Assembly (NCBI GenBank): GCA_003142535.1
Contig: PLMQ01000064.1
Span: 56,354-120,353 of the forward strand
Reading direction: 5' to 3'
DNA from: Syntrophaceae bacterium
GTDB lineage: Bacteria > Desulfobacterota > Syntrophia > Syntrophales > Smithellaceae
DNA: 64,000 nucleotides
Every line of letters begins with the position of its first letter. Position 1 is the stretch's first letter. The translations under genes were made by a program, and so were the position numbers. Below are positions 3,823 through 60,129 of this stretch, in pieces. The notes below the pieces were generated by a model. It was not told the origin of the DNA and searched no databases. It saw nothing but the letters and a program-made list of their open reading frames with translations.

Positions 3823-6342
3823 ATGCTGTATAATATTCTGAAAAAAATAGTCGGAACGAAAAACGATCGAGAGTTAAAACATTTATCGCTTATTTTAGAC
3901 GAAGTAAATAATTTTGAAAAGACAATGATGTCGTTAAGTGATGATGAATTACGCGTAAAAACAACCTATTTTAAAGATAAATTAAAAAATGGTTTTACAC
4001 TCGATGATATTCTTGCCGAAGCGTTTGCCGTGGCACGGGAAGCATCAAGGCGAACACTTTTAATGCGACCATTTGATGTACAGGTTATAGGCGGCATTGT
4101 TTTGCATGAAGGCAAAATTGCCGAAATGAAGACAGGTGAAGGGAAAACACTGGCAGCAACAATGCCTTTATACCTTAACTCCCTGGAGGGAAAGGGCTGC
4201 CATGTTATCACTGTCAATGATTACCTGGCGAAAAGAGACTCTGAATGGATGGGTCCGATATATAACTTTCTGGGCTTAACTGTAGGTGTAATTGTTCATG
4301 GGCTGGATGATGATGAGCGAAGAGAGGCCTATCATAAAGATATCACTTACGGTACGAATAACGAATTTGGCTTTGATTATCTACGCGACAACATGAAGTT
4401 CAGTCTGGAAGATTATGTCCAGCGTGAATTTAATTATGCGATCGTTGATGAAGTGGATAGTATTCTCATTGATGAAGCACGAACTCCATTGATTATCTCC
4501 GGTCCTTCAGAAGAATCCACTGATAAGTATTACAAAATTAATCAGATTATTCCGAGATTAAAAAAAGATCAGGACTATACGATTGACGAAAAAAGCCGTA
4601 CGGTTGTCTTGACAGAAGATGGAGTGGCGCACATTGAGGGATATTTAAATGTCCAGAATCTTTATGAGCCGCGAAATATAGAAAGTGTTCATCATGTTAA
4701 TCAGGCGCTTAAAGCTCATGCACTGTTCAAACGGGATGTGGATTACCTCGTAAAAGATGGAGAGGTAATTATAGTTGATGAGTTTACCGGCAGAGTTATG
4801 CCGGGAAGGCGTTACAGCGATGGATTGCATCAGGCTTTGGAAGCCAAGGAAAAGGTTAAGATCGAACGGGAAAATCAAACTCTGGCTTCTATTACATTCC
4901 AGAATTATTTCAGGATGTACAATAAACTGGCAGGTATGACCGGAACAGCCGATACGGAAGCCGCTGAATTTAAAAAAATATATAATTTAGATGTCGTTGT
5001 TATGCCTACCAATATGCCGATGATTCGTATGGATAACAATGATTTGATATATAAGACTGAACAGGAAAAGATTAAAGCTGTTATCGAAGAAGTAAAGGAA
5101 TTGAATAAAGTAAAAAGACCGGTGCTTATCGGCACAATCTCTATTGAAAAATCAGAATTATTGAGCAAGTACATTACTCGGGCGGGTATTAAACATCATG
5201 TATTAAACGCCAAAAATCATGAAAAAGAAGCGGAAATTGTTGCCCAGGCCGGTCAGGCGGGAATGGTAACCATATCAACAAACATGGCCGGGCGCGGTAC
5301 AGATATTCGTTTGGGTGAAGGTGTAGCCGAAGTGGGAGGATTGCATATTTTAGGGACAGAACGTCATGAAAGCCGCCGAATCGACAACCAATTACGAGGC
5401 CGATCAGGGCGGCAGGGCGATGATGGTTCGTCCCGTTTTTATTTATCATTAGAAGATGATTTACTACGAATATTTGGCGCAGAGCGAATATCATCAATTA
5501 TGGACAGAATTGGCATTGAAGAAGATCAACCCATTGAGCACAAATATATTTCCAAAGCAATTGAGGGTGCGCAAAAACGTGTGGAAGGGCAAAACTTCGA
5601 TATACGAAAACATCTGCTCGAATACGACGATGTCATGAACAAACAGCGGAAAGTAATTTATGAACAACGAAAAAAAGTGTTACGTGGCGAGAACTTATGG
5701 ACAGATATTGAAGAAATGATTGAAGAAGTGTCTGATGACCTTATTTTTGAATATGTTAATGAAAAAGGTCATCATGACGAGTGGAATCTCAAAGGACTTG
5801 ATGATGCCATCTATAAACAGTTTAACTTGAAATTGAACATAGAGAATTCCTCTGAAATAAATTCTGCCGATGCAATTCGAGAATATATTATCCAAAATGT
5901 GCAGAAACTTTTACATGAAAAAGAAAAAGAATTCGGGCAGGAGCTTATGAATTACCTGATGAAGGTAATCATGCTGCAGGCAATTGATTCTCATTGGAAA
6001 GAACATTTGCTGAATATGGATCACTTGAAGGAGGGTATTGGTCTGCGCGGCTATGGCCAGAAAGACCCCGTGCGGGAATATCAGCGGGAAGGCTATGAAA
6101 TGTTCATGGAAATGATTTTCCGCATTAAAATGGATACATTAGAAAAACTGTGTTTAATAAAGATACAGCGTGAAGAAGAAGTGGATGAAATCAGACAGAA
6201 GCAAAGACAAGATTACATTTTAAGCCGCGGAGAAGATGTACCGGCAACACAAACAGCTAAGCGTGAAGGGAACAAGGTCGGACGTAATGACCCCTGTCCC
6301 TGTGGCAGCGGTAAAAAATATAAAAAATGCTGTGGTGCTTAA
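3823..6342 (+). CDS. secA: Preprotein translocase ATPase SecA
   Basis: 839-aa ORF with the MKTGEGKT Walker A motif and a DEVD box. The C-terminal zinc-binding tail is [14 protein letters not shown]. Confidence 0.97.
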
Positions 6343-7566: not shown

Positions 7567-7751
7567 GACTAAAAAATTAAGAAACATTAAATTATTGTTT
7601 AAAAACCATTATTTGAGCTTGAACAATTAGTTTATTTGTGTTAAGAGCCGCCAAACTTCACACATCCTTTGATTGCCAGCATGTTGCTTATTAACTTAAG
7701 TGTGCGGGTAAGGTGACGAGGATGGAGGAAAAAACAAATAAGGAGATAAAT

Positions 7752-8573
7752 ATGTCCGTAATTTCAATGAAACTTTTACTGGAAGCGGGTGTCCATTTCG
7801 GGCACCAAACTAACAAATGGAACCCCAAGATGAAACCTTATATTTTTGGGGCAAGAAATAACATTTACATTATCGATCTTCAGCAAACTGTCGGTATGTT
7901 TCAGACTGCTTATAATTTTGTTGTTGACACGGTCAGCCAGGGGAAAGAAGTTCTTTTTGTCGGAACAAAAAAGCAATCTCAGGAAGCTGTAAAAGAAGAG
8001 GCTGTGCGCTGTGGAATGCCCTATGTTAATCAACGTTGGTTGGGCGGTATGTTGACAAACTTTGTTACGATTAAAAAGAGTATCGACCGCATGAATTCGT
8101 TGACAAAAATGTTTGAGGACGATTCCATAAAAGCTTTTCCCAAGAAGGAAATAACAAAATTACAAAAAGAAAAAGAAAAACTGGAAGATGTCTTAGGCGG
8201 TATTAGAAGCATGAAATCATATCCGGCGGCAGTGTTTATTGTTGATCCCAACCGCGAACATATCGCTGTTAAAGAAGCTAAGAAGTTAAAAGTGCCTATC
8301 GTTGGCATTGTCGATACAAATTGTGATCCTGATGATATTGACTATATTATTCCCGGAAATGATGATGCCATCAGAGCAATTAAATTGTTTGCCTCCAAAT
8401 TTGCCGATGCCGTTTTGGAAGGAAAGAAACGTTTTGAAGAAAAATTATCTGCGGAATCCAATAAAGAAATCAATACGGAGGCTACAGTTGCCAAGGGTGA
8501 AGAAACAGACATTCCCGAAAGTGTAGAGATGGAGAATGAATCAGCAGATACTGAAGAGCATGAAAGAAAATAA
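7752..8573 (+). CDS. rpsB: 30S ribosomal protein S2
   Basis: [19 protein letters not shown] signature. ATG 7752 is preceded by AAGGAG, so the track start at 7713 looks too long. Confidence 0.95.
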
Positions 8574-19990: not shown

Positions 19991-21886
19991 TCAGTGCCTA
20001 CCATGCGGGGCTTTACTCTTTGCTTCTTCATATTCCGCGCGCAAAGCAATGTGGTCGGTGTCGTCTAAATCCTCGGCTCTTTTTACCCAATCTTCAAATT
20101 TAATATCCACGCCGAAGATGCCAGTCATTTCGTCTTTATCATTAACGAGTGGAGCCGAAACGGTGAAGCATAAAACTCCGGTCATCTTGGAAATGAAGAA
20201 ATCGGTGACATGCACTTTACCTGTCTGTAACGGCTTAATAAACCACTCGCGGTCGGATTGATCTGTGCCGACGCCGTAATTCTCATATTTAGCACGATCG
20301 GCAATGTTTGTTATATTTTTCGTCGTTTTTCGTCCATTCATATCCACTACATAAGCAAACTGAATGGAAGGATTTTCATCGACAAATTCCTGCATCAACG
20401 GTTCTTGTTTTGCGGATTTCATCGTTTTCATTGCCGTATCTTCGATAATCTGATTCACGGCGGCTACAGCAGCTTCTTCCGCGGTAAATTTGATTTTTTC
20501 CAGCGCCGACATAAATAATTCCGGCAAATATTTACGTACTTTCTTCTCCAATTCCTCCGGAGAAATGCTGGTTTGACGTCCGTCATCATATTGTTCAGCA
20601 GTCCATTTATGAATCTTGGAAACACCCGGATTTCTTTTATCCACGGCGCCGTCACCTTTGAGATTGAAACGTTGATTAATCCAGAAGGCAATACCGGCAT
20701 TACCCGATTTATCCGTAATCATAGTTACGACCGGTCGTTTCAGAATTTTGCCGGTATCGAATATGTTGTATATTTCTTCGCACTTGATGAGGCCGTCGGC
20801 ATGAACACCGGCGCGGGTGACATTGAATTCTGAACCGACAAAAGGATAGTTATGCGGTATCTTAACGCCGATTTTCTTTTCAAAATATTCGGCAATATCA
20901 GTAATTACAGTTGTATCAATTCCATCGTTGTGACCTTTCAGGGCGATGTATTCGATGATCAGGCCTTCAATCGGCGGATTGCCTGTGCGTTCACCAAGAC
21001 CAAGAAGGGTGGAATTAGCTGCGCTGCAGCCATAGAGCCAGGCTGTTGTGGCATTAATCATGGCTTTATGGAAGTCGTTGTGTCCATGCCACTCGAGAAG
21101 TTCACCGGGAACACCGGCATCATCAATGAATGCCCGGACAAGTTTGTCCACACTTCGAGGCAGCGATGCACCCGGATAAGTTACGCCGTAACCCATAGTA
21201 TCGCAGAGCCTGATTTTGATATCAATGCCGCTTTCTTCCCTGAGTTTCATCAGTTCAATTGCAAAAGGAACACAAAAGCCATAAATATCGGCGCGAGTAA
21301 TATCCTCAAAATGGCAGCGCGGCCTTATTCCCAGATCAAGAACGGATTTGACGACACCCAGATAATCGTCCATCGCCTGGCTGCGTTTCTTTTTTAGTTT
21401 TAAAAAAATATGGTAGTCGGAAACGGAGGTAAGCAATCCTGTTTCTTTAAGCCTTGCTTCTTTAACCAGTTTAACATCTTCCTTAGCGGCACGAATCCAA
21501 CCGGTTATTTCCGGATATTGCAGGCCAAGTTTAAGACATTCTTTTACAGCATCTTTATCTTTTTTGCTGTAAAGAAAGAATTCGGTTTGCCGGATAACGC
21601 CATTAGGTCCGCCCAATTTACTCAGAAGTTTGTAAATATCGACGATTTGTTCAACGGTGTATGGCGGCCTTGATTGCTGTCCGTCACGGAATGTAGTATC
21701 AGTAATGAATATTTCTTCAGCCCGATTTACCGGAATCAGTTTATGATCAAAAACTATTTTGCTTATTTCAGAATAGGGAAAAACATCCTTCATCAAATTC
21801 GGTTCATCGACTTCCTTGAGATCATATTTCCAAAATTTGTCCATTTGCTGATCAAGGAGTTTTTTCTCTTTATTCCATTTTACCAT
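19991..21886 (-). CDS. HMGL-like synthase (isopropylmalate/homocitrate/Re-citrate synthase family) fused to a C-terminal Cache-like domain
   Basis: N-terminal ITDTTFRDGQQ and HGHNDFH metal/substrate motifs of the DRE-TIM aldolase family. The last ~170 aa show a Cache/PDC-like pattern (YVVDMNGRK...GTDQSDREWF...KMTGVLCFTVSAPL...GIFGVDI). Confidence 0.65.
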   Translation of the reverse strand: MVKWNKEKKLLDQQMDKFWKYDLKEVDEPNLMKDVFPYSEISKIVFDHKLIPVNRAEEIFITDTTFRDGQQSRPPYTVEQIVDIYKLLSKLGGPNGVIRQTEFFLYSKKDKDAVKECLKLGLQYPEITGWIRAAKEDVKLVKEARLKETGLLTSVSDYHIFLKLKKKRSQAMDDYLGVVKSVLDLGIRPRCHFEDITRADIYGFCVPFAIELMKLREESGIDIKIRLCDTMGYGVTYPGASLPRSVDKLVRAFIDDAGVPGELLEWHGHNDFHKAMINATTAWLYGCSAANSTLLGLGERTGNPPIEGLIIEYIALKGHNDGIDTTVITDIAEYFEKKIGVKIPHNYPFVGSEFNVTRAGVHADGLIKCEEIYNIFDTGKILKRPVVTMITDKSGNAGIAFWINQRFNLKGDGAVDKRNPGVSKIHKWTAEQYDDGRQTSISPEELEKKVRKYLPELFMSALEKIKFTAEEAAVAAVNQIIEDTAMKTMKSAKQEPLMQEFVDENPSIQFAYVVDMNGRKTTKNITNIADRAKYENYGVGTDQSDREWFIKPLQTGKVHVTDFFISKMTGVLCFTVSAPLVNDKDEMTGIFGVDIKFEDWVKRAEDLDDTDHIALRAEYEEAKSKAPHGRH

Positions 21887-32423: not shown

Positions 32424-32453
32424 TTGACTTTTCCCGGTTATTTGCACTATATC
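32424..32453 (+). promoter_or_regulatory. Sigma70-like promoter for the leader/ABC operon
   Basis: TTGACT (32424-32429), 18-nt spacer, TATATC (32448-32453). Confidence 0.4.
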
Positions 32454-32478
32454 CCTGACGCTAGAGGTAATAAGAAAG

Positions 32479-32571
32479 ATGAACAAAAAATGTTTTTTTC
32501 AGCAGGCAGATTTTTTCTATTATTTTAGCTTTTATAGCTTTAGCGCTAAGGTCTGCCTGATTGGATCATGA
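32479..32571 (+). CDS. Candidate leader peptide, 30 aa, MNKKCFFQQADFFYYFSFYSFSAKVCLIGS (7 Phe, 3 Tyr)
   Basis: My own translation of the sequence. GAGG lies 11 nt upstream. Eight of the ten codons in 32512-32541 are Phe/Tyr. It sits between promoter-like boxes and a terminator. Confidence 0.45.
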   Translation: MNKKCFFQQADFFYYFSFYSFSAKVCLIGS

Positions 32572-32590
32572 CCGTTACTTAACGAAATGA

Positions 32591-32628
32591 ACCGTGGGCA
32601 GATGAATATCAGCTCGCGGTTTTTTTTT
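32591..32628 (+). terminator. Intrinsic terminator inside the ABC operon leader (attenuator terminator)
   Basis: The 9-bp stem ACCGTGGGC / GCTCGCGGT (two G-U pairs) has a 12-nt loop and is followed by a T8-9 run. It ends 46 nt before the SBP start codon. Confidence 0.65.
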
Positions 32629-32674
32629 GCCATTTATTAAGCAATGTAGCTTTACTCAAAAAGGGGAGGGAAAA

Positions 32675-33877
32675 ATGAAAAAGATAAATGTTTTAATAGC
32701 ATTGCTAGCTGCCGTTTTCTTAGCTGCCGGTTTTAATCAGGCTCAAGCCAAAACAATCAAGGTCGGTGTTGCGATAAATCTGACCGGCCCTGCTTCGAGT
32801 TGGGGACAGTTTCATGAAAAAGGCCAGCGCGATTATTTCCGTTACGTCAATGAAGTTAAAGGCGGCATATCCGGCAATATGATCGAGATGATTTCAGTGG
32901 ACACGGCATATAAAGTTCCGGAAGCCATAGCGGCCGTTCAGAAATTCGCTCTGCAGGATAAAGTGGATATGATCGCTACCTGGGGTGCGGGTGAAGGTCT
33001 TGCCGCTAAACCGATTGTCCAGAAATATAAAATCCCGACTATTAATTATTCCACAAGCTGGGAAATTCTGGAAAAACCTTTTGAATATATGTACCTGCCT
33101 TTCGGCAGCTATAAAATGGATTGTTATGCCGTGCTGGAATACATCCGGGCGATTCATAAGGGAAAAGATGCTCCCAAGGTAGGGCTGCTCACATATAACA
33201 ATGCCTATGGTCGTTCGATTCATGAGCCGAGCAAAGAATATGCAGCCAAATTAAAAATCAATATCGTAGCCATTGAAGAATTCCCGCCCAAGACGGTTGA
33301 TCTGAACACTGAATTGCTCCGTCTGCAAAAAGCCGGTGCTGAATATATTTTTATTCAAATGCTGCCATCCGCGATTATAACGGCTTTCAAAAGCGCTGAT
33401 CGTATTAATTACAGTCCGATGTTTTTAGGAACATGGACATCAACAGACCCCGATTTCTTCAAGATGGGCGCGGGACTCATTCGTGATCGCCTGATCATCC
33501 AATTTCCGGGTGCATTACCTGTTGATAAATCCGCGGGAATGAAAATTATGAAAGAATTGTGGAAACGTTACAAAACAGTGGAAAAGTTTGATGCTTCTTA
33601 TTGGGAGGGCGTCACCATAGGTATGATCATGGAGCGGGCGTTCATCCGTGCCTATGAGAAAAGTAAAGATATTAATCCGGAAACAATAAACGCTGCAATG
33701 GAATCATTCAAAAATGAGGATTTCGGCGGTTTGGTACCTAAAATAACTTACACTAAAGATGATCATGGTGCATCATTTACAGCCCGCATGGTCAGAGTAA
33801 AAGAAGATGGAACGTTTGTCCCGTTAACCAATTTCTACATACCGGGTAAGGATAAGATTAAATTAATCAAAAAGTAA
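32675..33877 (+). CDS. ABC transporter substrate-binding protein, LivK/Peripla_BP_6 family
   Basis: Signal peptide MKKINVLIALLAAVFLAAGFNQAQA after AAGGGGAGGG. Typical KVGV..LTGP N-terminal pattern. The track start at 32627 (TTG) would run through the terminator T-tract. Confidence 0.85.
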   Translation: MKKINVLIALLAAVFLAAGFNQAQAKTIKVGVAINLTGPASSWGQFHEKGQRDYFRYVNEVKGGISGNMIEMISVDTAYKVPEAIAAVQKFALQDKVDMIATWGAGEGLAAKPIVQKYKIPTINYSTSWEILEKPFEYMYLPFGSYKMDCYAVLEYIRAIHKGKDAPKVGLLTYNNAYGRSIHEPSKEYAAKLKINIVAIEEFPPKTVDLNTELLRLQKAGAEYIFIQMLPSAIITAFKSADRINYSPMFLGTWTSTDPDFFKMGAGLIRDRLIIQFPGALPVDKSAGMKIMKELWKRYKTVEKFDASYWEGVTIGMIMERAFIRAYEKSKDINPETINAAMESFKNEDFGGLVPKITYTKDDHGASFTARMVRVKEDGTFVPLTNFYIPGKDKIKLIKK

Positions 33878-33890
33878 TTAAAGGGTTTTC

Positions 33891-34718
33891 ATGAAAGCTT
33901 TTCGCGGTCGGCCGTCAATAATGATCGGTCGGCGAGAAGAAGATAAAAAAGCCGAGTTGGAAATTAAAAATCTGCATCTGAGTTTTGGCGGTGTTACTGC
34001 CGTCAAAGATGTTGATCTTAATGTACATACCGGTGAATTAATGGCCATTATCGGTCCTAACGGGGCGGGTAAAACCAGTCTGCTCAATTGTATCACCGGG
34101 TTTTACCATCCCCAAAAAGGGAATATAATCTTCAATGGCCAGGATATCACCAATTTGCATACCCACAAGCTGGTCGGCGTCGGCATCGGCAGAACATTTC
34201 AGAATATTGAACTGTTTCCGGGTATGACAGTTTTGGCTAATATGACTCTGGCCCGGCACATCCATTGTCATTACAGCTTTCTTAAATCCTGTTTATTTTC
34301 TCCGGCAGTAAAAAAAGAAGAAATACGCCACAGAAAAATATTGGAAGAAATTATCGATTTTCTGGAAATGCAGCCAATTCGGAAAAAAACAGTCGGCTCT
34401 CTGCCTTATGGCATGATGAAAAGAGTGGAACTAGGAAGGGCGCTTGCTCTGGAACCGCGTCTGCTTATTTTAGATGAACCCTTTGCTGGTATGAATCTGG
34501 AAGAAAAAGAGGACATGGTGCGTTTCCTCTTGGAATTGAATCAGAACTGGGGACTGACGATGATTCTAGTTGAACATGACATGTCAATTATTATGAGCAT
34601 TGCCAAGCGTATTATGGTGTTAAATTTTGGTGAAAAAATAGGCGAGGGCACGCCCGAGGAAATCAGCAGCCATCCGGATGTTATTAAAGCTTATCTTGGC
34701 GATGTTGAGGTATTATAA
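33891..34718 (+). CDS. ABC transporter ATP-binding protein, LivG-like
   Basis: GPNGAGKTS Walker A, ABC signature region, LILDEP Walker B. Confidence 0.9.
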   Translation: MKAFRGRPSIMIGRREEDKKAELEIKNLHLSFGGVTAVKDVDLNVHTGELMAIIGPNGAGKTSLLNCITGFYHPQKGNIIFNGQDITNLHTHKLVGVGIGRTFQNIELFPGMTVLANMTLARHIHCHYSFLKSCLFSPAVKKEEIRHRKILEEIIDFLEMQPIRKKTVGSLPYGMMKRVELGRALALEPRLLILDEPFAGMNLEEKEDMVRFLLELNQNWGLTMILVEHDMSIIMSIAKRIMVLNFGEKIGEGTPEEISSHPDVIKAYLGDVEVL

Positions 34719-34748
34719 AAGAAATATTTTGATACAGGCAGAGAAGAT

Positions 34749-36677
34749 TTGGATACGGCAACTCAAACAATTTCACCCGAATATAATTTTACTCTTCCGC
34801 AATTATTAGCTGATAATGCGGCTAAATACGGCAATGCTAAAACGGCGATTCGTGATAAAGCTTATGGTATCTGGCAAACTTACGGCTGGCTTGACTATTA
34901 TCACTATATGCTGAATACTGCCGCCGGTTTTGCCGCGGCCAATCTTCGCCGTGGTGAGACTGTTTGTCTGATTGTGGAAAATCATCCCGAATGGCTTTTT
35001 TGCGAATTGGCGGCACAGGCGGTAGGTGCAACCACTTTAAATTTATTTACATCTTCCGTTGCCGCAGAATTGTGTACGTCAATAACGCGGGTGCGCGCGC
35101 CCATAGTTGTAGTACAAGATCAGGAGCAGGTTGATAAACTGCTGGAAGTTAAAGACAAGCTGACAGATGTTCAGAAAGTAGTTTATATTGACCCTACGGG
35201 GATGTCTTCCTATGCAGGTAATTCCTGGCTCATCAGTTATGCCCAGCTTCTGGAAAACGGAAAATTATATAATCGGGAAAATCAAAAATTCGTTGCCGAA
35301 CAAATCAACAAATGCCGCCCTGATGATATCGCCGTCATGATTCAAACATCCGGCACCACAGGGGTTCCCAAATTAGCGATGCTTTCCCATCGTAATTTGA
35401 CGCAGATGGCGCGGCAATGGACTTCCGCCAATGAAATCAAGCCTCAGGAAAACTGGATGTCTATATCACCCCCGGCCTGGATTGTTGATCAGATGTGGTG
35501 TATGGGTATAGCCCTGCAAAGTGCCATGATAATTAATTTTCCCGAAACAGCGGAAACGGTGCTGGAAGATTTCCGTGATATCGGGCCAACATTACTTATT
35601 ACATCCTCCCGATTCTGGGAAGATATGGCCTCCCGCATTCGAGTAAAAATATCCGATGCCGGATGGTTGAAAAGAAATTTATTTTATTTAGGTGAGAAAG
35701 TCGGGAAATCAGTTGTAGAAAAAAATACTAGGAAAGCCGCTATTCCACTGCCTTTAAACATTTTATACAAATTAATGTCATTACTCGTTTATCGTCCGCT
35801 ATTAGATCGTCTCGGTTGTTCCCGGTTTCGCGGTGCTTTCACCGGAGGCCATCCGATAAGCCCCGATGTAATTCTTTTCTTCCGCGCTATTGGTTTGAAT
35901 TTAAAGCAATGCTATGGCCTGACTGAATCCGGAGGAATTTTTCAAATTCAGCCGGATAATGAAGTTAAACTCGAAACAGTAGGCAAGCCATTGCCCAGTA
36001 CGGAAGTAAAAATTGCCGAAGATCAGGAAGTTCTTGTAAAAAGCCAGGCTAATTTTTCCGGCTATTATAATGATTATCAGGCAACGCAGAATGCCTATGT
36101 TGATGGCTGGTTGAAGACCGGCGATGCCGGTTATATTGATGCGGACGGCCATCTGTTGATAATCGGACGAAAAGAAGATATCATCCGCAATAAAAGCGGG
36201 GAAGCCTTTTCGCCTGATTTCATCGAAACGCGCCTGAAGTTCAGCCCCTATATTAAAGAAGCGGTAACCTTTGGAGAAGGCCGCCCCTTTATCACGGCGA
36301 TGATTAATATTGATCTGGGCAATGTCGGTAACTGGGCGGAAGAGCGCATGATCCCTTACACAACATACATCGATCTTTCGCAGCAATCCGCTGTAGAAGA
36401 ATTGATATTGAAAGAAGTGCGTGAGGTAAATGAACAACTTCCCGACTTAATGAAAATTAAAAAATTTATTTTATTGTATAAATTGCTGGATGCCGATGAA
36501 GAAGAACTGACCCGAACCGGCAAGGTGCGCCGCCGCTTTGTTTACGGCCTGTATATAAAAATTATCGAAGCCATGTACCGCGATGAAAAAAGCATAAGCG
36601 TGCTGGGCAAAATACGCTATCGGGATGGCCGCATCGGTGAAATTGATACAACAGTAAATATCATCAGGGTTAATTAA
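34749..36677 (+). CDS. AMP-dependent acyl-CoA synthetase/ligase embedded in the ABC operon
   Basis: 642-aa ORF with the AMP-binding motif TSGTTGVPK and a later GWLKTGD motif. TTG start. Confidence 0.85.
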   Translation: MDTATQTISPEYNFTLPQLLADNAAKYGNAKTAIRDKAYGIWQTYGWLDYYHYMLNTAAGFAAANLRRGETVCLIVENHPEWLFCELAAQAVGATTLNLFTSSVAAELCTSITRVRAPIVVVQDQEQVDKLLEVKDKLTDVQKVVYIDPTGMSSYAGNSWLISYAQLLENGKLYNRENQKFVAEQINKCRPDDIAVMIQTSGTTGVPKLAMLSHRNLTQMARQWTSANEIKPQENWMSISPPAWIVDQMWCMGIALQSAMIINFPETAETVLEDFRDIGPTLLITSSRFWEDMASRIRVKISDAGWLKRNLFYLGEKVGKSVVEKNTRKAAIPLPLNILYKLMSLLVYRPLLDRLGCSRFRGAFTGGHPISPDVILFFRAIGLNLKQCYGLTESGGIFQIQPDNEVKLETVGKPLPSTEVKIAEDQEVLVKSQANFSGYYNDYQATQNAYVDGWLKTGDAGYIDADGHLLIIGRKEDIIRNKSGEAFSPDFIETRLKFSPYIKEAVTFGEGRPFITAMINIDLGNVGNWAEERMIPYTTYIDLSQQSAVEELILKEVREVNEQLPDLMKIKKFILLYKLLDADEEELTRTGKVRRRFVYGLYIKIIEAMYRDEKSISVLGKIRYRDGRIGEIDTTVNIIRVN

Positions 36678-36688
36678 GGAATCAAACA

Positions 36689-37567
36689 ATGGAATTCTTT
36701 CTGCAATTATTAGTTAATGGTGTTTGTGTAGGATTGCTCTATGGAATATCAGCTATGGGTTTTGTGATGATTTTCAAATCATCCAGCGTTTTGAACTTTG
36801 CCCATGGCGAGCTTTTAGCCCTCGGAGCTTTTTTCTTTTTAGCTCTGATTACCTGGGCCAAGTTACCCATAATTGTTGCTTTCCTTCTTACGCTTGTGGG
36901 CAGCTTTGTCCTTGGTTTTTTAATTGAAAAATTTTTCCTGCGGCCGTTGATTGGTGAAAAACTTATATTCGTAATCATGCTTACCGTAGGCCTGGCTGCC
37001 ATGTTTAAAGGATTAATCCTACTTATCTGGGGTGGAAATTTGCGAACCTATCCTAATTTTTTGCCGGAAACACTGGCGCTGAAATTAGGCACTATTTATA
37101 TCGCCCCTGTTTATTCAGCAACACTGGTTATCAGCGTTCTTTTCCTTGTTTTGTTCGGCTTATTCTTTAAGAAGTCAGCACAGGGAATTTACATGCGCTC
37201 CGTGGCCGATAATCAAATGGCAGCACTGTCCCTCGGAGTTCACGTCCGGAGGGTGTTTGCACTTTCCTGGGCCATTGCCGCAATGGTAGCCGCCATGAGC
37301 GGTATCGTGCTTGGTATAATCAATGGCGTTAATGTTCATGATCTGAGCTCCATCGGCTTAAAAGTCTTTCCTGTGGTCATTCTGGGCGGTCTGGACAGCA
37401 TTGGCGGAGCAATCATCGGCGGAATTATAATCGGATTGCTGGAAACATTCACCGGTGGCTATTTATCGCCTTCTTTAACTGATGTGGTTCCGTATATCGT
37501 GCTTGTGTTTATCTTGCTGGTTAAGCCTTATGGTTTATTTGGCCTAGTCGAAATAGAGAGGGTTTAA
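36689..37567 (+). CDS. Branched-chain-type ABC permease, LivH-like
   Basis: 292-aa polytopic ORF with LivH-like sequence. Confidence 0.88.
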   Translation: MEFFLQLLVNGVCVGLLYGISAMGFVMIFKSSSVLNFAHGELLALGAFFFLALITWAKLPIIVAFLLTLVGSFVLGFLIEKFFLRPLIGEKLIFVIMLTVGLAAMFKGLILLIWGGNLRTYPNFLPETLALKLGTIYIAPVYSATLVISVLFLVLFGLFFKKSAQGIYMRSVADNQMAALSLGVHVRRVFALSWAIAAMVAAMSGIVLGIINGVNVHDLSSIGLKVFPVVILGGLDSIGGAIIGGIIIGLLETFTGGYLSPSLTDVVPYIVLVFILLVKPYGLFGLVEIERV

Positions 37568-38638
37568 ATGAGGAGATTTTCGTTTCATCCCTGCGGAAAT
37601 TATCGCGAAAATTACAAGCAGGAGCTATCCATATTTGAAACAGATTATGGCCGGCTTTGCGTTATATTCTTTCTAATAATATTATTTTTTGTTGCTCCCT
37701 TTGTTGTTAGTCCATACATGCTTTATATTTTAAATACCATCGGCATCGCCGCTATTGCGGCCATTGGTCTGAATATCCTTATTGGTTTTACAGGGCAAAT
37801 ATCTCTCGGGCACGGTGCTTTTTTCGGTGTCGGAGCCTACGCTGCCGCCATATTAGCGACACGGCTGGGATTGGGCTTTTATCTGGCAATACCTGCCGCC
37901 GGTATCATAACTGCACTTGTCGGTATGATTTTCGGTATTCCTTCGGGACGATTAAAAGGCCTTTATTTGACAATTGCTACCCTGGCCGGGCAATTTATCA
38001 TTGAATATGTTTTAATTCATTGGGATAGCCTGACGAAAGGAACGATGGGAATTACTATCCCGGCCCCAAATGTTTTCCATTGGGAAATAGCGGGGGATAA
38101 GTCATTTTTCTTTCTTATCTTCTTGAGCCTTGTTTTAATGACCTGGTTTGCCGTCAATATCATGCGCAGTAAATATGGCCGTGCCTTTATTGCTATCCGT
38201 GATAATGATAGAGCGGCTGAAGGCATGGGCATCCCGATTTTTAAATATAAATTGCTTTCTTTCGGCATCAGTTCATTCTATGCCGGCTTTGCCGGAGCTC
38301 TCTGGGCTTATTACATGGTCAGTATAACCACTGAGCCTTTTAACCTGGGGCTTTCCGTGGAGTACATAGCCATGGTAATAATTGGCGGAATGGGCAACAT
38401 TCCTGGCGCCATATTCGGAGCAACCTTTATTACATTGTTAAATGAGCTTCTTCGTTATGTTACCGGTCTGTTGATGAATGTCGGTTTCGTCACAAGTTCC
38501 GGTTTAAATATGGCGCCGCTGAGAGAATTTGTTTTTGGCTTGGCCATTGTTTTATTTATTTTGCTGGAGCCGCGTGGAATTGCCGAATTATGGAGAATAT
38601 TCCGTTCCAGCTTCCGGCTCTGGCCGTTCTCATATTAA
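37568..38638 (+). CDS. Branched-chain-type ABC permease, LivM-like
   Basis: 356-aa polytopic ORF containing GQISLGHGAFFGVGAY, typical of LivM. Confidence 0.88.
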   Translation: MRRFSFHPCGNYRENYKQELSIFETDYGRLCVIFFLIILFFVAPFVVSPYMLYILNTIGIAAIAAIGLNILIGFTGQISLGHGAFFGVGAYAAAILATRLGLGFYLAIPAAGIITALVGMIFGIPSGRLKGLYLTIATLAGQFIIEYVLIHWDSLTKGTMGITIPAPNVFHWEIAGDKSFFFLIFLSLVLMTWFAVNIMRSKYGRAFIAIRDNDRAAEGMGIPIFKYKLLSFGISSFYAGFAGALWAYYMVSITTEPFNLGLSVEYIAMVIIGGMGNIPGAIFGATFITLLNELLRYVTGLLMNVGFVTSSGLNMAPLREFVFGLAIVLFILLEPRGIAELWRIFRSSFRLWPFSY

Positions 38639-38646
38639 GGTAAACT

Positions 38647-39447
38647 ATGGGTGAAATTATTTTACAAATAAATAATATATCTGTTGTATATTCAGATGTT
38701 ATACAGGTATTAAAAGGCGTTTCTTTAAGTGTGGAAAAGGGACAGATAGTCTCTCTTTTAGGCAGCAACGGTGCGGGAAAGACAACTACCCTAAAAGCAA
38801 TATCCGGCCTGTTGAAACCGGAAAACGGTGCCGTAACTGATGGCTCGATTATTTACGAAGGTAAGAATATTCAGAACCAGGCACCGGAATACATTACTCG
38901 CCTGGGAATTATTCAAGTCCTCGAAGGACGTCAGCCCTTCAAATATTTGACGATTGAAGAAAATCTGCGTGTGGGCACGGCAACGAGAGCCGGTAAACCA
39001 TATAAAGATGATTTGGATCTCGTTTACAACTATTTTCCCGCACTGGTACAAAGAAGAAAATCTTTAGCCGGATATTGCAGCGGTGGTGAGCTGCAGATGC
39101 TGGTTATCGGCCGGGCTTTGATGGCGCATCCGCAACTTCTAATGCTTGATGAACCTTCGTTAGGTTTGGCGCCACTGGTTGTCAAGGAAATATTCCGTAT
39201 TATAAAAAAAATCAATGAAGAGCAGGGCGCCACGATTGTTCTGGTTGAGCAGAACGCCAATATGGCCCTGCAGGTCGCGCATTACGGCTATGTTATGGAA
39301 AACGGCAAAATAGTCATGGAAGGCACATCCAAAGAATTATCGGAAAATCCCGATGTCAAAGAATTTTACCTGGGTATTGCGGCTACAGGAATTGCCAAAT
39401 CGTATAAGGATGTAAAATCATATAGGCGACGTAAGCGTTGGCTGTAA
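38647..39447 (+). CDS. ABC transporter ATP-binding protein, LivF-like, with basic C-terminal tail
   Basis: GSNGAGKTT Walker A, SGGE signature, LMLDEP Walker B. Confidence 0.9.
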   Translation: MGEIILQINNISVVYSDVIQVLKGVSLSVEKGQIVSLLGSNGAGKTTTLKAISGLLKPENGAVTDGSIIYEGKNIQNQAPEYITRLGIIQVLEGRQPFKYLTIEENLRVGTATRAGKPYKDDLDLVYNYFPALVQRRKSLAGYCSGGELQMLVIGRALMAHPQLLMLDEPSLGLAPLVVKEIFRIIKKINEEQGATIVLVEQNANMALQVAHYGYVMENGKIVMEGTSKELSENPDVKEFYLGIAATGIAKSYKDVKSYRRRKRWL

Positions 39448-39516: not shown

Positions 39517-39798
39517 ATGAATTTTACAAACGATATAAAATCGGTAACATATTTAAAATCCAACGCGGCAGATTTACTCAATCAAATAAACGAAACTCAG
39601 CGAACTGTAATAATTACGCAAAATGGGGATGCGCGGGCGGTACTTCAAGATCCGATAAGCTATGAAAATATGCGTAATGCGATTGGCATCTTAAAATTGA
39701 TTTCGCAGGGTGAGGCTGATACTAGAGGCGGGAAAGTTAAAAGTCAGGATGATGTTTTTAACGACATTGAAGTTAAACTAAAAGAAAAACTTAGATGA
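39517..39798 (+). CDS. Type II antitoxin, Phd/YefM family
   Basis: 93-aa ORF with the N-terminal pattern LKSNAADLLNQINETQRTVIITQNGDARAVL typical of Phd/YefM. Overlaps the toxin gene by 4 nt. Confidence 0.8.
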   Translation: MNFTNDIKSVTYLKSNAADLLNQINETQRTVIITQNGDARAVLQDPISYENMRNAIGILKLISQGEADTRGGKVKSQDDVFNDIEVKLKEKLR

Positions 39799-40127
39799 AC
39801 AAAAAATATAAAATACTTTGGGCCGAGGTTGCTGAACATGACCTAACTGATATTATCGAATATATTGCAATTGACAGTCCGGCCAATGCCTTAAAGATAC
39901 TGCAAAAAATCAAAAAAACGGCATCAATTCTCTATAGTCTTCCCGAACGCGGCCGCGTCGTACCGGAACTTCAAGCTCAAGGCATCCTGATTTATAGAGA
40001 GCTAATAACCGCGCCCTGGAGAATAATATACAGAATTTCCGATAAGAATATTTATGTATTGTCAGTTTTAGATACAAGGCGAAATGTAGAGGATATCCTT
40101 TTGAATCGACTAGTATACAGTAGATAA
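39795..40127 (+). CDS. Type II toxin, RelE/ParE family
   Basis: 110-aa ORF with an A..DL..I..YI start, the PERGR..PEL motif and WRIIYRI...IYVLSVLDTRR, typical of ParE/RelE-fold toxins. Confidence 0.8.
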   Translation: MNKKYKILWAEVAEHDLTDIIEYIAIDSPANALKILQKIKKTASILYSLPERGRVVPELQAQGILIYRELITAPWRIIYRISDKNIYVLSVLDTRRNVEDILLNRLVYSR

Positions 40128-41014: not shown

Positions 41015-42268
41015 ATGAATCGCACATTTGATAAAAAAGAATCGTGGACGAATAAGAAAAGAAAAGAAGCACAAGATGAGCTTTTATCCAGCATGGTGAA
41101 GCTTGGTTATAAAAAATCAGCAACAATAAAAAAAATATTCTATAAGCATAAAATCGATCCGCGGCAAATTAAATCCCGGGAAGATTTGGAAACATTGCCG
41201 GTTACCTCCCGCGAAAAACTGGTGGAAATGGAAATGCAGGAACCACCTTACGCCGGACTGGAAAATCCCGATACGAAGATTGACCGGATATTCACATCAC
41301 CGGGTCCTGTGTATGAGCCGCATCTTTCGGAAAATGATTATCTATGGGCACGAGCATTTCATGCTGCTGGCATCGGTTCTGACGATATCGCTCTTAACGC
41401 GTTTTCTTATCATCTGGTAGCGGCAGGATTGACTTTTCACACTGGTCTGCGCAAACTCGGAGCTACTGTTGTTCCTTCGGGAACATCCTCCACACAAATT
41501 CAGGTGCAGTTAATCAAAGATTTAAAAGTAACCTCCTATGTCGGCACACCAAGCTTTCTGATGAATATTATTAAAAAAGCGGAGGAAATAGGTTTTGACT
41601 TCCGCAAGGATTTCCGGGTGAAAAGGGCCTGCTTTGCCGCCGAACCGTTGTTTCCGGCAATGCGCCTATCTTTTGAAAAGGATTACGGCATTGATACTTA
41701 TCAAATGTACGGCGCGACTGAAGTTGGCGATGTCGCTTACGAGTGCTCCGCAAAAAATGGCTGGCATATCTGCGAAGAAACAATTGTAGAAATTGTTGAT
41801 CCGGCAACCGGCAAAAATCTTCAGCCCGGCCAATTGGGTGAAATTGTCGTTACCAGACTCAATGATATTTTCTTTTTGTTCCGTTTCGGCACCGGCGATT
41901 TATCACGTCTGATTACGGAAAAGTGTTCCTGCGGACGCACATCATACCGATTGGCTGGAATTGCGGGCAGGGTAGGTGATGCCGCCAAAGTACGGGGAAT
42001 GTTTTTGGCACCCAGCCAGTTGAAGATGGTTCAAGCGAAGTTCGATAACCTGCCACTGCAGGCAGTGGTAAGTCGGGAAGGGCATCTGGATAAACTGACA
42101 CTGCGCATTGAAAAGAATAAACAGGATACAGGCGATTCTTCATGGGAAGAAAACTTTAAGGACATTTTTAAAGAAATCTGTACGGTAAAAATAGATCAGG
42201 TGGAATATGTTGCAGCAGGTACAATCAAACCGGAGGAGAAGGTGATTGTTGATCTGCGGAAGTGGTAA
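41015..42268 (+). CDS. Phenylacetate-CoA ligase (PaaK)/F390-synthetase-like adenylate-forming enzyme, atypical P-loop region
   Basis: 417-aa ORF with PaaK-like architecture (YGATE, GTGD, C-terminal small domain). FTSPGPVYEP stands where PaaK carries SSGTTGKP. Confidence 0.6.
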   Translation: MNRTFDKKESWTNKKRKEAQDELLSSMVKLGYKKSATIKKIFYKHKIDPRQIKSREDLETLPVTSREKLVEMEMQEPPYAGLENPDTKIDRIFTSPGPVYEPHLSENDYLWARAFHAAGIGSDDIALNAFSYHLVAAGLTFHTGLRKLGATVVPSGTSSTQIQVQLIKDLKVTSYVGTPSFLMNIIKKAEEIGFDFRKDFRVKRACFAAEPLFPAMRLSFEKDYGIDTYQMYGATEVGDVAYECSAKNGWHICEETIVEIVDPATGKNLQPGQLGEIVVTRLNDIFFLFRFGTGDLSRLITEKCSCGRTSYRLAGIAGRVGDAAKVRGMFLAPSQLKMVQAKFDNLPLQAVVSREGHLDKLTLRIEKNKQDTGDSSWEENFKDIFKEICTVKIDQVEYVAAGTIKPEEKVIVDLRKW

Positions 42269-57730: not shown

Positions 57731-57761
57731 TTTGAATTTTGTTAATCCGGAGGCTGGAGAT

Positions 57762-59522
57762 TTGAAAGTATTAATGTCGGGGAATGAAGCTATCGCCCGC
57801 GGTATGTATGAAGCGGGGATCCGGTTTGCTGCCGCTTATCCCGGTACACCGAGCACGGAAATATTGGAAGAGTTTGCCAAATATGATGGTGTTTATGCGG
57901 AATGGTCGCCCAACGAGAAGGTAGCTCTGGAAGTGGCCATCGGCGCGGCATTAGCCGGTGAAAAGGCTGTTGCCGTGATGAAGCATGTCGGAGTGAATGT
58001 CGCCGCCGATCCTCTCTTTACCGTAAGTTATACGGGCATTAATGGTGCTTTAGTCATTATCAGCGCCGATGATCCTTCATTACATAGTTCACAAAACGAA
58101 CAGGATAATCGTAATTACGCTAAATTTGCAAAAATTCCTATGTTGGAGCCGGCAGACGCCCAGGAAGCTAAAGAGTTTATCAAACTCGCTTTTACCATCA
58201 GTGAAAAATTTGACACGCCGGTTTTTTTGCGCTCTACAACCAGAGTGTCACATTCCAAATCCGTCGTTTCTCTGGAAGAGCCAATACCGTACATCGATAA
58301 AACAGCAATTACTTATAACACGACAAAGTATGTCATGGTTCCGGCTAATGCCCGTATCCGGCGTGTAGCGGTAGAAAAAAGAACGCTAGCCTTAAAAACA
58401 TTTGCCAATAGTTTCCCGGAAAACAAATTGGAAATTAATAATCCAGACGTAGGAATTATTACAGCCGGAATGCCTTATAATTATGCCAAAGATGTTTTCC
58501 CTGATTATTCTTATCTGAAACTGGGTATGGTTTATCCCTTACCGGAAAAATTAATCCGCGAATTTGCCGCTAAAGTTAAAAAGATTTACGTTATTGAAGA
58601 GTTAGATCAATTTCTGGAAGAACAAATCAAGGCCATGGGTATCTCGGTAATTGGTAAGGAAATATTCCCTTATACCAATGAATTTGATCCCGGCATCATC
58701 CAAAATGCCATAAATAATCAGAACAAGGCTACTGATTTGCCTGTGAAAAGTATTCCGCCGCGTCCACCCAATCTTTGTCCGGGTTGTCCGCACCGCGGTT
58801 TATTTTACACATTAAACAAACTCAAACTATTTGTGACCGGGGATATCGGTTGTTATACACTTTCCTTTATGAAACCGCTGGAAGGTCTGCATTCCTGTAT
58901 CTGTATGGGTGCCAGCATCGGCATGGCGCACGGCATGAGCAAAGCCTTGAAAGAAAAAGGGAAGGGCAAGATAGTCGGTGTAATCGGCGATTCAACCTTT
59001 ATTCATTCCGGAATAACTCCGCTTTTGAATATGGCCTATAATAAGAGCAATGCTGTTATTATCATTTGTGACAATAGCACAACGGCCATGACCGGAATGC
59101 AGGAACATCCGGCTACCGGTTACACCCTTTTAGGGGAAAAAACAAAACAACTTGATTTGAAAGTCTTGGTTTCGGCGCTCGGTATCGATAATATAAGAGT
59201 TGTTGATCCTTATGATCTGAAAAATACAAGAGCCGTTATCAAGGAAGAACTGGCTAAGGATGGCCCTTCCGTAGTCATTTCACAAAGGCCGTGTGTCCTG
59301 TTCAAAAGGGCAAAATTAAAAGCTCAAAAGCCTTTGCAGGTTGATCCCGAAAAATGTACGGGCTGTAAAGTTTGCCTTGGTTTGGGATGCCCACCGATTT
59401 CTTGGAAAAAGATGGAGAAAAAAGAAGGCTCGAAGAGGGAAGGGGTATCCGTAATTGATGAAAATCTTTGCAATGGGTGCGGTTTATGCCTGCAAGTATG
59501 CAAATTTGAAGCGATTAAATGA
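57762..59522 (+). CDS. iorA: Indolepyruvate:ferredoxin oxidoreductase subunit alpha
   Basis: MSGNEAIARG N-terminus, TPP-binding GDIGCY/GDSTF motifs and two C-terminal 4Fe-4S motifs. I prefer TTG 57762 (GGAGGCTGGAG upstream) over the TTG 57732 used by the track. Confidence 0.88.
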   Translation: MKVLMSGNEAIARGMYEAGIRFAAAYPGTPSTEILEEFAKYDGVYAEWSPNEKVALEVAIGAALAGEKAVAVMKHVGVNVAADPLFTVSYTGINGALVIISADDPSLHSSQNEQDNRNYAKFAKIPMLEPADAQEAKEFIKLAFTISEKFDTPVFLRSTTRVSHSKSVVSLEEPIPYIDKTAITYNTTKYVMVPANARIRRVAVEKRTLALKTFANSFPENKLEINNPDVGIITAGMPYNYAKDVFPDYSYLKLGMVYPLPEKLIREFAAKVKKIYVIEELDQFLEEQIKAMGISVIGKEIFPYTNEFDPGIIQNAINNQNKATDLPVKSIPPRPPNLCPGCPHRGLFYTLNKLKLFVTGDIGCYTLSFMKPLEGLHSCICMGASIGMAHGMSKALKEKGKGKIVGVIGDSTFIHSGITPLLNMAYNKSNAVIIICDNSTTAMTGMQEHPATGYTLLGEKTKQLDLKVLVSALGIDNIRVVDPYDLKNTRAVIKEELAKDGPSVVISQRPCVLFKRAKLKAQKPLQVDPEKCTGCKVCLGLGCPPISWKKMEKKEGSKREGVSVIDENLCNGCGLCLQVCKFEAIK

Positions 59523-59550
59523 TTATTATAATTGGACTGGATAAGATTAA

Positions 59551-60129
59551 ATGGGTAAGGAAGTAAAAAGCATTTTGCTGGCTGGAGTCGGTGGCCAGGG
59601 TATTTTAAGAGCCAGTGATATTATGTGCATGGCCTTCATGGAAGCTGGCCTGGACGTTAAAAAGAGCGAAGTTCATGGCATGGCGCAGCGCGGCGGTTGC
59701 GTGACCAGCCATGTTCGTTATGGCCATAAAGTTTATTCGCCATTGGCGCAACTGGGAAGCATTGATCTCCTTGTTTCTTTTGAGAAAATGGAATCTCTGC
59801 GCTATTTAAACTATCTGACTAAAGATGCCACAATTATAGTTACTACCGATGAAATTTACCCGCCTGCAGTGAATATGGGTGATGCTCCTTATCCCGAAGA
59901 TATAATTTCCGTCTTAAAGAAGAATTTTAAACTAGTTAAAGAAATCGATGCCACAGACCTTGCAAAAAAAGCAGGTAATGTCAAAGCGGCTAATGTTGTT
60001 CTATTGGGAGCTGTTTCCGGTTATCTGGATATAAAGCAACCTGTCTGGGAATCTGTTATCGAAAAATCTTTTCCGGAAAAACTGGTAAAAGTTAATTTAG
60101 CATCTTTTCAAATGGGAAGAAGTGCTTAA
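59551..60129 (+). CDS. iorB: Indolepyruvate:ferredoxin oxidoreductase subunit beta
   Basis: 192-aa ORF with GVGGQG and GMAQRGG motifs. Follows iorA. Confidence 0.88.
   Translation: MGKEVKSILLAGVGGQGILRASDIMCMAFMEAGLDVKKSEVHGMAQRGGCVTSHVRYGHKVYSPLAQLGSIDLLVSFEKMESLRYLNYLTKDATIIVTTDEIYPPAVNMGDAPYPEDIISVLKKNFKLVKEIDATDLAKKAGNVKAANVVLLGAVSGYLDIKQPVWESVIEKSFPEKLVKVNLASFQMGRSA

Follow-up and report, generated by a model that had tools for sequence, protein, structure and literature searches.

A predicted phenylalanine/tyrosine-codon attenuator before an ABC transporter/acyl-CoA ligase operon of Smithellaceae shares its scaffold with leaders of shikimate genes

The DNA analysed here (64,000 nucleotides of contig PLMQ01000064.1; hereafter the window) is a housekeeping chromosomal stretch of a Smithellaceae (Syntrophales) bacterium. 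Upstream of an operon for an ATP-binding cassette (ABC) transporter with an embedded acyl-coenzyme A (CoA) ligase, it holds a leader (32424–32674) with a promoter, a short open reading frame (ORF) rich in Phe and Tyr codons and an intrinsic terminator. A sequence-only reading had taken this arrangement for a transcription attenuator of the pheL/trpL type. That proposal is supported by conservation, by linkage to the operon, by a scaffold shared with other leaders and by covariation, and we consider it highly likely that the leader is a ribosome-mediated transcription attenuator sensing charged tRNA-Phe and, secondarily, tRNA-Tyr. Leader-peptide attenuation as such is textbook biology, though documented chiefly for biosynthetic operons.

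Anatomy of the leader

All parts of the leader lie on the plus strand. The −35 box TTGACT occupies 32424–32429, and CTTGAC is invariant at this place in relatives (columns C64–C69 of alignment A1, which holds the window leader and 77 loci with a usable upstream T-run, 78 sequences). The −10-like box TATATC (32448–32453) reads TATA followed by two variable bases and lies 17–18 nucleotides (nt) past the −35 box, with an 18-nt spacer in the window; together with the TTATTTGC block it spans 32438–32453. The Shine-Dalgarno (SD) sequence AGAGGT (32463–32468) contains GAGG at 32464–32467, with A106, G107 and G108 at least 90% conserved in A1, and is placed 10 nt upstream of an ORF of 30 codons plus TGA (32479–32571). 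The encoded peptide, MNKKCFFQQADFFYYFSFYSFSAKVCLIGS, has 7 Phe and 3 Tyr.

Segment 1 (CAGGCAGA, 32503–32510) is the perfect complement of TCTGCCTG at 32552–32559 in segment 2 (GGTCTGCCTG, 32550–32559), whose TGCC is invariant and which can pair with either segment 1 or segment 3. The regulatory codon run FFYYFSFYSF (32512–32541), aromatic at 8 of its 10 codons, begins 2 nt past segment 1, stops 9 nt short of segment 2 and sits in the loop of hairpin 1:2, a U-rich coding tract of 41–50 nt. Between segments 2 and 3 lies an internal hairpin (32566–32590) that carries the leader stop codon (32569–32571) in its 5′ arm, TCATGA. Segment 3 (TGGGCAGAT, 32595–32603), the predicted antiterminator partner of segment 2, is also part of the 5′ arm of the intrinsic terminator (32591–32628), which consists of a stem-loop (segments 3:4, 32591–32620) including GGCAGA at 32597–32602, and of a T9 tract (32620–32628). 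The ATG of the substrate-binding protein (SBP) gene follows at 32675, preceded by the SD AAGGGGAGGG.

These parts agree with the sequence-only reading. Its coordinates for the promoter boxes (TTGACT at 32424, TATATC at 32448) and for GAGG (32464) match the sequence; its 30-codon ORF with 7 Phe, 3 Tyr and 8 of 10 aromatic codons at 32512–32541, the perfect complementarity of segments 1 and 2, GGCAGA within the terminator hairpin (the tail being T9) and the strong SD before the SBP start were likewise recovered. Among the 730 ATG-initiated ORFs of at least 12 residues in the window, the leader ORF is the sole one with 8 aromatic codons in 10, the runner-up reaching 6, and this density was reached in 2 of 2000 shuffles of the T-rich intergenic region. 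The 181-nt leader folds into hairpin 1:2, the small internal hairpin and the terminator at −50.7 kcal/mol (z = −3.3), and none of 200 shuffles folded as stably.

Simple consensus scans of the leader listed neither promoter nor terminator, the former because the −10 box lacks the usual final T, the latter because the stem is interrupted and the loop region exceeds 8 nt. A sigma-54 promoter was considered and rejected, as the GG-N10-GC element is absent from the spacer in the window and from the conserved block; the upstream sigma-54 activator gene is also not a constant neighbour. The ATTTGC block (window 32438–32445), invariant between the −35 and −10 boxes, recurs in the loci L001–L080 and L101/L192 and may be the operator of some regulator.

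Conservation and coding signature

A genome scan with the binding protein gave 80 species-level loci at 77–92% identity. A hidden Markov model (HMM) of the leader, run with nhmmer, matched once, and once only, before the SBP gene in 82 of 83 sequences, the one exception being truncated 52 nt upstream of this gene; every one of the 82 Smithellaceae loci that reach far enough upstream has the leader in front of the SBP–ATPase–ligase–permease operon. The model found no second copy in the window or in ~758 kb of related loci, and its minus-strand matches were the palindromic terminator. The gene upstream varies (a PilR-like regulator in ~35 of 80 loci, citrate synthase, KsgA with an unknown ORF, or a divergent T2SSE gene), while the order SBP–ATPase–ligase–permease is constant across loci, indicating that the leader belongs to the operon.

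From 5′ to 3′, A1 conserves the invariant CTTGAC, the ATTTGC block, the TATA box, AAGAGGT and the ATG; segment 1 as CAGGCAG, followed by the codon run TTTTTTTACTTTTTTAGCTTT; segment 2 as GTCTGCCTG, with TGCC invariant, followed by TCATGACC bearing the stop codon; and the small hairpin, an invariant AACCGTGGGC, the 3′ arm GCCCACGG and T9. The short Phe/Tyr ORF with its terminator, which the sequence-only reading had suggested seeking in orthologous loci, is thus kept in all Smithellaceae loci compared. The spacer from T9 to the SBP gene (46 nt in the window, 46–60 nt overall) is unconserved in A1 except for the SD, and the operon therefore appears to have no promoter of its own there.

The leader ORF carries a clear coding signature. 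It is intact from the ATG, in the same frame and with the same stop, in 77 of the 78 aligned leaders. The distance from the ATG to TGCC of segment 2 is 66, 69, 72 or 75 nt in 76 of 78, always a multiple of three, and the distance from the T of TGCC to the stop is 15 nt in all 78. The non-coding spacers are without triplet periodicity (−35 box to ATG, 49–66 nt; stop to segment 3, 23–26 nt), and insertions in the leader are whole codons, for example an additional FY. In the peptide, the N-terminus is variable, and the core FFYFFSF and the C-terminal half of the ABC-type peptide, FFSF..KVCL..S, are conserved (ABC-type leaders being those before this operon). The aromatic run of the ABC-type leader has zero Trp codons.

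Synonymous codons are mixed at the core Tyr position (TAT 33, TAC 28). The three core Phe codons (window 32524–32532; L001–L080) are UUU in 221 of 226 cases, against a background TTT:TTC use of 257:136 in the genes of the window. This bias in UUUUUUAGCUUUA is a nucleotide-level constraint beyond what the three helices account for, and slower wobble decoding of UUU may be its cause.

Two natural ABC-type variants, L049 (3770–3950) and L028 (3820–3950), shift frame after the aromatic run and stop at a UGA inside segment 2, with the RNA segments kept (in L028 minus segment 1, which is taken out by a deletion visible as a 19-column gap in A1). L049 has a T6 terminator tail. The two are either genuine regulatory variants or assembly errors of metagenome-assembled genomes (MAGs). 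Because they shift frame yet retain the RNA segments, the conservation of KVCL would reflect a constraint on the RNA, not on the peptide.

Alternative pairings

The 2:3 helix pairs GUCUGCCU with GGGCAGAU (32551–32559 with 32595–32603; 6 Watson-Crick pairs plus G-U) and encloses the conserved stop-codon hairpin 32566–32590. The sequence-only reading had rightly counted six Watson-Crick pairs plus wobbles but called the pairing short, when it comprises 8–9 pairs. Across the cells of A1, pairing is kept at 83% for 1:2, 96.6% for 2:3 and 95.6% for 3:4, and at 97% for the outer helix of the small hairpin; slid controls gave at most 51%.

The suggested energy comparison of 1:2 plus 3:4 with 2:3 was also run. 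In minimum-free-energy folds of A1, hairpin 1:2 formed in 69 of 78 sequences and the terminator in all 78; with segment 1 masked and segment 4 absent, 2:3 formed in 78 of 78. The default is thus 1:2 plus the terminator, and 2:3 appears when segment 1 is masked. Mean energies were −19.7 kcal/mol for the 2:3 form and −26.8 for the terminator form; as the former is less stable, antitermination would be kinetic, as in trp.

The conservation of the competing 2:3 pairing bears on the possibility that the ORF is an independent gene for a small hydrophobic protein with a terminator of its own, the ABC operon being separately promoted or reached by constitutive read-through. A hydrophobic ORF of 27–32 residues with a good SD and a strong terminator behind it would suit such a gene. 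Besides the 2:3 pairing, the ~46 nt from T9 to the SBP gene, without promoter-like conservation, the variable N-terminus of the peptide and a frame that is not kept across the paralogous leaders described below speak against it, and we regard this explanation as extremely improbable. Attenuation by the translating ribosome remains the reading that we pursue.

Paralogous leaders

A metagenome scan for the pattern GGTCTGCCTG-N25-55-ARCCGTGGGCRGA returned at least 120 loci. In at least 85 of these the leader precedes an orthologue of the binding protein (66–89% identity), and in at least about 25 the whole scaffold, from segment 1 through the terminator, stands before other genes. The genes behind it encode DAHP synthase (NCBIfam TIGR00034, 474 bits against a cut-off of 173), ADH synthase, the archaeal-type entry into the shikimate pathway (TIGR01949, 371 against 299), an AroK/AroB fusion (TIGR01357, 343 against 305) and a 516-residue acyl-CoA ligase (PRK06187, 503 against 476). 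One shikimate operon type has aroG, aroB, a fusion of chorismate mutase with shikimate dehydrogenase, EPSP synthase and, more distally, chorismate synthase; a second comprises ADH synthase, DHQ synthase II and shikimate dehydrogenase. Desulfobacterales MAGs are the source of the closest named proteins.

The shikimate-type copies, which belong to other Desulfobacterota, are read in other frames, segment 2 coding for GLP or SAW and not VCL. Their peptides, exemplified by MNTFSGGFYYYYFRYYFYRTGLPEVR and MFQSSGRYYFYFWYFFYYTGLPGAR, are rich in Tyr, Phe and Trp (mean Y 5.3–6.5, mean F 3.1–3.6, Trp present), and the stop lies 14–16 nt past segment 2. The leaders of the ABC type and of the 516-residue ligase are rich in Phe codons; Tyr codons are few or absent in them, and their run is free of Trp.

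In L101 (~5400–5640, minus strand) and L192 (4790–6568), an F-only leader, MSMTAISMVDNFFSFFCFFRRVCLLCS, precedes a stand-alone 516-residue ligase; its scaffold and its CTTGAC...TTATTTGC promoter block are those of the ABC-type leader. The nearest solved relative of this ligase is the feruloyl-/fatty-acyl-CoA synthetase 8WEV/8WEU, and a Peripla_BP_6 protein and an adenylate cyclase are encoded upstream of it.

Some leaders have a second hairpin with a T-run (GGCCGTG...CACGGCC TTTTT) right behind the first terminator. It occurs in most leaders of the ADH-synthase type, in some of the DAHP type and in those of the 516-residue ligase type (L086, L090, L139 at ~7740–7800, L183, L193, L199, L202, L206, L207, L101 and L192), and is missing from the ABC-type leader of the window. 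The 5′ arm of this second hairpin, together with the A-rich stretch before it, is complementary to segment 4 and the U-tract, so that a 4:5/5:6 extension, with two terminators under one switch, is possible.

The re-reading of one RNA in several frames also bears on whether the leader encodes an arrest peptide of the TnaC/SecM/ErmCL type, which would stall the ribosome regardless of tRNA charging, perhaps upon binding of an aromatic molecule or drug; the operon would then be induced by substrate or stress, not by starvation. The conserved C-terminal half FFSF..KVCL..S of the ABC-type peptide fits such a sensor, and there is a precedent in the bmrB–bmrCD system, where drug-induced stalling is reported to attenuate an ABC transporter (PMC4191407). 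KVCL and the terminal Ser are, however, accounted for by segment 2 and the stop-codon hairpin. L049, L028 and all shikimate-type copies read the same RNA in other frames and have unrelated C-termini, and the targets of the paralogous leaders are genes of aromatic biosynthesis, which fits the sensing of starvation. We therefore hold an arrest peptide to be very unlikely and continue with a leader that senses charged tRNA.

Covariation in divergent copies

Eight homologues of DAHP or ADH synthase, chosen regardless of RNA, were looked up, and all eight had an aromatic leader of the same architecture. In L203 the segments read GGGCAA (segment 1), GGTTTGCC (segment 2) and GGGCAAACC (segment 3); one position of segment 2 has changed from C to U, and both its partners, in segments 1 and 3, from G to A. 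L215 has CGGACAG as segment 1 and GGTCTGTCTG as segment 2, and the three segments of L207 are GGCGGATC, GATCCGCC and GGGGGATC. The terminator arms are CCGCGGGC/GTCCGCGG in L203 and CCGCGGGC/GCCCGCGG in L204 and L215.

We counted covariation in a 32-sequence segment alignment, A3. Pairs changed on both sides numbered 9, versus 3.6 ± 1.5 in shuffles (1 of 500), and cells changed on both sides 13, versus 4.0 (0 of 500); pairing was 89%, versus at most 41% when slid. Three of the covarying pairs lie in 1:2, four in 2:3 and two in 3:4. The covariation that the sequence-only reading had asked for is hence borne out by compensatory changes in divergent copies, while within the ABC-type leaders it is not significant.

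The same comparison addresses an attenuator controlled by a protein, small RNA or ligand, in which a factor would bind the invariant GGUCUGCC / CCGUGGGCAGA and translation of the ORF would be incidental. Segments 2 and 3 and the UUUUUUAGCUUUA tract are indeed conserved beyond the needs of pairing or coding, and recur nearly unchanged across orders and reading frames. Yet the loci sampled without bias do vary segments 2 and 3, with compensation, and the SD, the ATG, the frame and a stop 14–16 nt past segment 2 are kept in three frames, the aromatic codons being the sole feature common to all peptides. Nothing aptamer-like is seen in the loop of 1:2, an unstructured tract rich in U, and neither the window leader nor 10 paralogous leaders matched an Rfam riboswitch or T-box. 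Control by such a factor thus seems to us very unlikely, and ribosome-mediated attenuation is preferred.

The controlled operon and its neighbourhood

The operon behind the leader (32675..39447, plus strand) has the same gene order in relatives. It encodes a Peripla_BP_6 binding protein, the SBP (32675–33877), an ATPase (33891–34718), a FadD11-like acyl-CoA ligase of 642 residues (34749–36677), which scores far below the cut-off of its model, two permeases (36689–38638) and a second ATPase (38647–39447), all on the plus strand.

The sequence-only reading had argued from the uptake of Phe by the LIV system, which tells little about this SBP: against the LivJ/LivK equivalog (NCBIfam PRK15404) it scores 53.8 bits, with a cut-off of 477. 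An identity as a LIV-I type importer (LivJ/K-HMGF) was rejected on this ground. The nearest solved structure to the SBP is 3LKB (E = 2e-30), and the other matches in PDB (E ~1e-7 to 1e-10) bear generic transporter names only. For COG0683 proteins with a branched-chain annotation, the ligand is often an aromatic, fatty or dicarboxylic acid (PMC3223731). The homology of the SBP, the ligase and the PaaK-like protein allowed no assignment of a substrate. The embedded acyl-CoA ligase argues for a carboxylic acid.

Upstream of the leader, the window encodes ComEC, a PilS-like kinase and a sigma-54 response regulator; in L082 (5994–8189), the latter two, adjacent in the window, are split by a Transposase_29 gene. 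Downstream of the operon follow a Phd/ParE pair, a PEMT-like gene and a PaaK-like gene, with IorAB later. The immediate downstream flank (window 39517–40127) is a variable island, occupied in the window by the Phd/YefM–ParE toxin–antitoxin pair, in L081 (16961–18634) by DUF4160/DUF2442/DUF4357 genes and in L082 (18796–21200) by Cas1/Cas2/Card1. The PaaK-like gene lies downstream in L081 also, and CRISPR-Cas takes its place in L082. Membership of this gene in the operon was rejected, as it is set apart by variable islands and is not always syntenic. The PaaK-like protein (41015–42268) scores far under the PaaK cut-offs (230 bits against 700, and 199 against 646); IorA (721 against 651) and IorB (247.5 against 237), at 57732–60129, exceed theirs. 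The PaaK-like ligase and IorAB, which the sequence-only reading had noted nearby, are therefore present, but outside the operon, 1.6 kb and 18 kb downstream.

Elsewhere in the window (19991–21886, minus strand), a protein of 631 residues joins an N-terminal HMGL-like domain of the pyruvate carboxyltransferase type to a C-terminal Cache/PDC sensor, an unusual fusion.

Discussion

The features of the trpL/pheL/hisL class were found together in the leader: a translated ORF, an aromatic codon run, a terminator, mutually exclusive pairings and a matching geometry. The parts themselves, their conservation, the coding signature, the alternative pairings and covariation in the paralogous copies are established computationally.

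In the mechanism that we propose, transcription would start at ~32460 from a sigma-70-like promoter, and the leader ORF would be translated at once. With Phe and Tyr plentiful, the ribosome would reach the UGA at 32569, 15 nt past segment 2, and cover segment 2; segments 3 and 4 would then pair, and RNA polymerase would terminate at T9, at ~32628. In the absence of translation hairpin 1:2 would form, and again the terminator. When Phe-tRNA is scarce, the ribosome would stall in the F/Y run (32512–32541), masking or sterically blocking segment 1. Segment 2, thus freed, would pair with newly made segment 3 in the helix of 8–9 bp around the stop-codon hairpin; this would exclude the terminator and allow read-through into the ABC transporter/acyl-CoA ligase operon, which would most likely be switched on upon Phe shortage. 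The argument from geometry uses the footprint sizes of the ribosome. From these parts we infer the start and end of the leader RNA, the stalling, the response to Phe and Tyr, and a physiological role.

Several observations weigh against this reading. The regulatory codons lie in the loop of 1:2, whereas those of trpL/pheL are inside segment 1; the −10 box, lacking the final T, departs from the usual form; and the controlled genes are not obviously amino-acid genes. The near-invariant UUU codons and the conservation of segments 2 and 3 beyond the needs of pairing hint at an extra constraint. Covariation within the ABC-type leaders of A1 is not significant, being nearly absent because the segments hardly vary, and RNAalifold on A1 called the terminator alone. 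The segments of A3 were anchored by similarity and partly by hand; in six sequences the automatic anchor, based on Hamming similarity, had chosen decoys for segment 1, and we placed these registers manually. Of its 32 sequences, 22 were found by the pattern scan, in which segments 2 and 3 are fixed, so that the covariation signal stems from few unbiased loci.

The operon would presumably supply Phe and Tyr, or a precursor acid. The two acyl-CoA ligases found under F-rich or F-only leaders are mutually unrelated (23% identical), and the occurrence of a second ligase under an F-only leader makes the activation of an aryl acid to make Phe an attractive conjecture. More broadly, and tentatively, the operon might serve the salvage of Phe (and Tyr) and have joined an ancient regulon, spread across the Desulfobacterota, of aromatic attenuators built on one RNA scaffold that is read in three frames; we think this doubtful. 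Phenylacetate, 4-hydroxyphenylacetate or phenylpropionate would then be imported and converted into the CoA thioester, and reductive carboxylation by indolepyruvate:ferredoxin oxidoreductase followed by transamination would yield Phe or Tyr. The codons of a leader would mirror what its operon makes, with F-rich runs for the ligase operons and Y/F/W runs for the common shikimate pathway. The basis for this salvage is thin, namely the two ligases, the neighbouring IorAB and PaaK-like genes and the Trp-free run of the ABC-type leaders. Direct import of Phe and Tyr by the operon is a simpler alternative.

Whichever substrate is taken up, the Phe/Tyr codons tie a common, unannotatable cluster of 'branched-chain amino-acid transporter and long-chain-fatty-acid ligase' to aromatic amino-acid supply. 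This gives a functional handle, a testable substrate hypothesis for the cluster in uncultured syntrophs. The reading of one scaffold in three frames is in addition a natural experiment that parts RNA-level from peptide-level constraint.

The leader is part of an undescribed attenuator RNA family of Desulfobacterota, although the kind of attenuation is itself known; new are the family and the placing of one of its copies before an operon for uptake and CoA activation, not a biosynthetic one. An Rfam search gave nothing significant for the window leader or the 10 paralogous leaders. Membership in RF01859 Phe_leader, the gamma-proteobacterial pheL, was rejected (18 bits against a gathering score of 55, on the minus, and hence wrong, strand). 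The best match, RF04312 'trpB ncRNA motif' (20.5 bits against a gathering score of 59, E = 2.4), was likewise set aside; the likeness, a 5′ hairpin, a linker and a terminator with a U-run, is a generic hairpin-plus-terminator geometry only. A riboswitch or T-box was also dismissed, as no Rfam model matched and the loop of 1:2 is a coding tract. The sequence-only reading knew of no described aromatic-codon attenuator on such a transporter operon, and our full-text literature search turned up no account of this RNA family, nor of a transporter/ligase operon under an aromatic leader.

A survey from 2010 noted that attenuation was known for very few ABC transporters and that, at the time, no leader peptides were known outside Proteobacteria, Actinobacteria and a few Firmicutes (PMC2965389). 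A passing remark in PMC3082878 holds that Desulfobacterium autotrophicum may use a pheL. The bmrB–bmrCD system of Bacillus subtilis (PMC4191407) is a reported case of ribosome-mediated attenuation of an ABC transporter operon, and resembles the present leader in that a leader ORF and a terminator control the transporter via ribosome stalling. Unlike the window operon, bmrCD exports drugs; ribosomes stall there because of antibiotics that target them and not because a charged tRNA is scarce, and the bmrB leader is not known to have an amino-acid-specific codon run.

For the shikimate-type copies of the scaffold, the closest precedent in function is aroR of Corynebacterium glutamicum, a mixed Phe/Tyr leader peptide that attenuates the aroF (DAHP synthase) operon and is reported to respond to Phe limitation (Neshat et al. 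2014, as cited in PMC11802643). Functionally, aroR is the counterpart of these copies. It belongs to another phylum and is unrelated in sequence, its run as given there is much shorter (F-Y-F versus 6–14 aromatic codons here), and the window copy differs from it in controlling a transporter/ligase operon.

With E. coli pheL–pheA and trpL the leader shares a short ORF with a codon run, the 1:2/2:3/3:4 pairings and the terminator (PMC11802643), as well as a stop codon placed so that a terminating ribosome would mask segment 2 and an antiterminator that is weaker and would act kinetically. It has no sequence or structure homology with them. Unlike in pheL and trpL, the codon run lies in the loop of 1:2, just 3′ of segment 1, Phe and Tyr codons are mixed, an additional hairpin bears the stop codon, and the genes under control form an ABC importer/acyl-CoA ligase operon in place of a biosynthetic enzyme.

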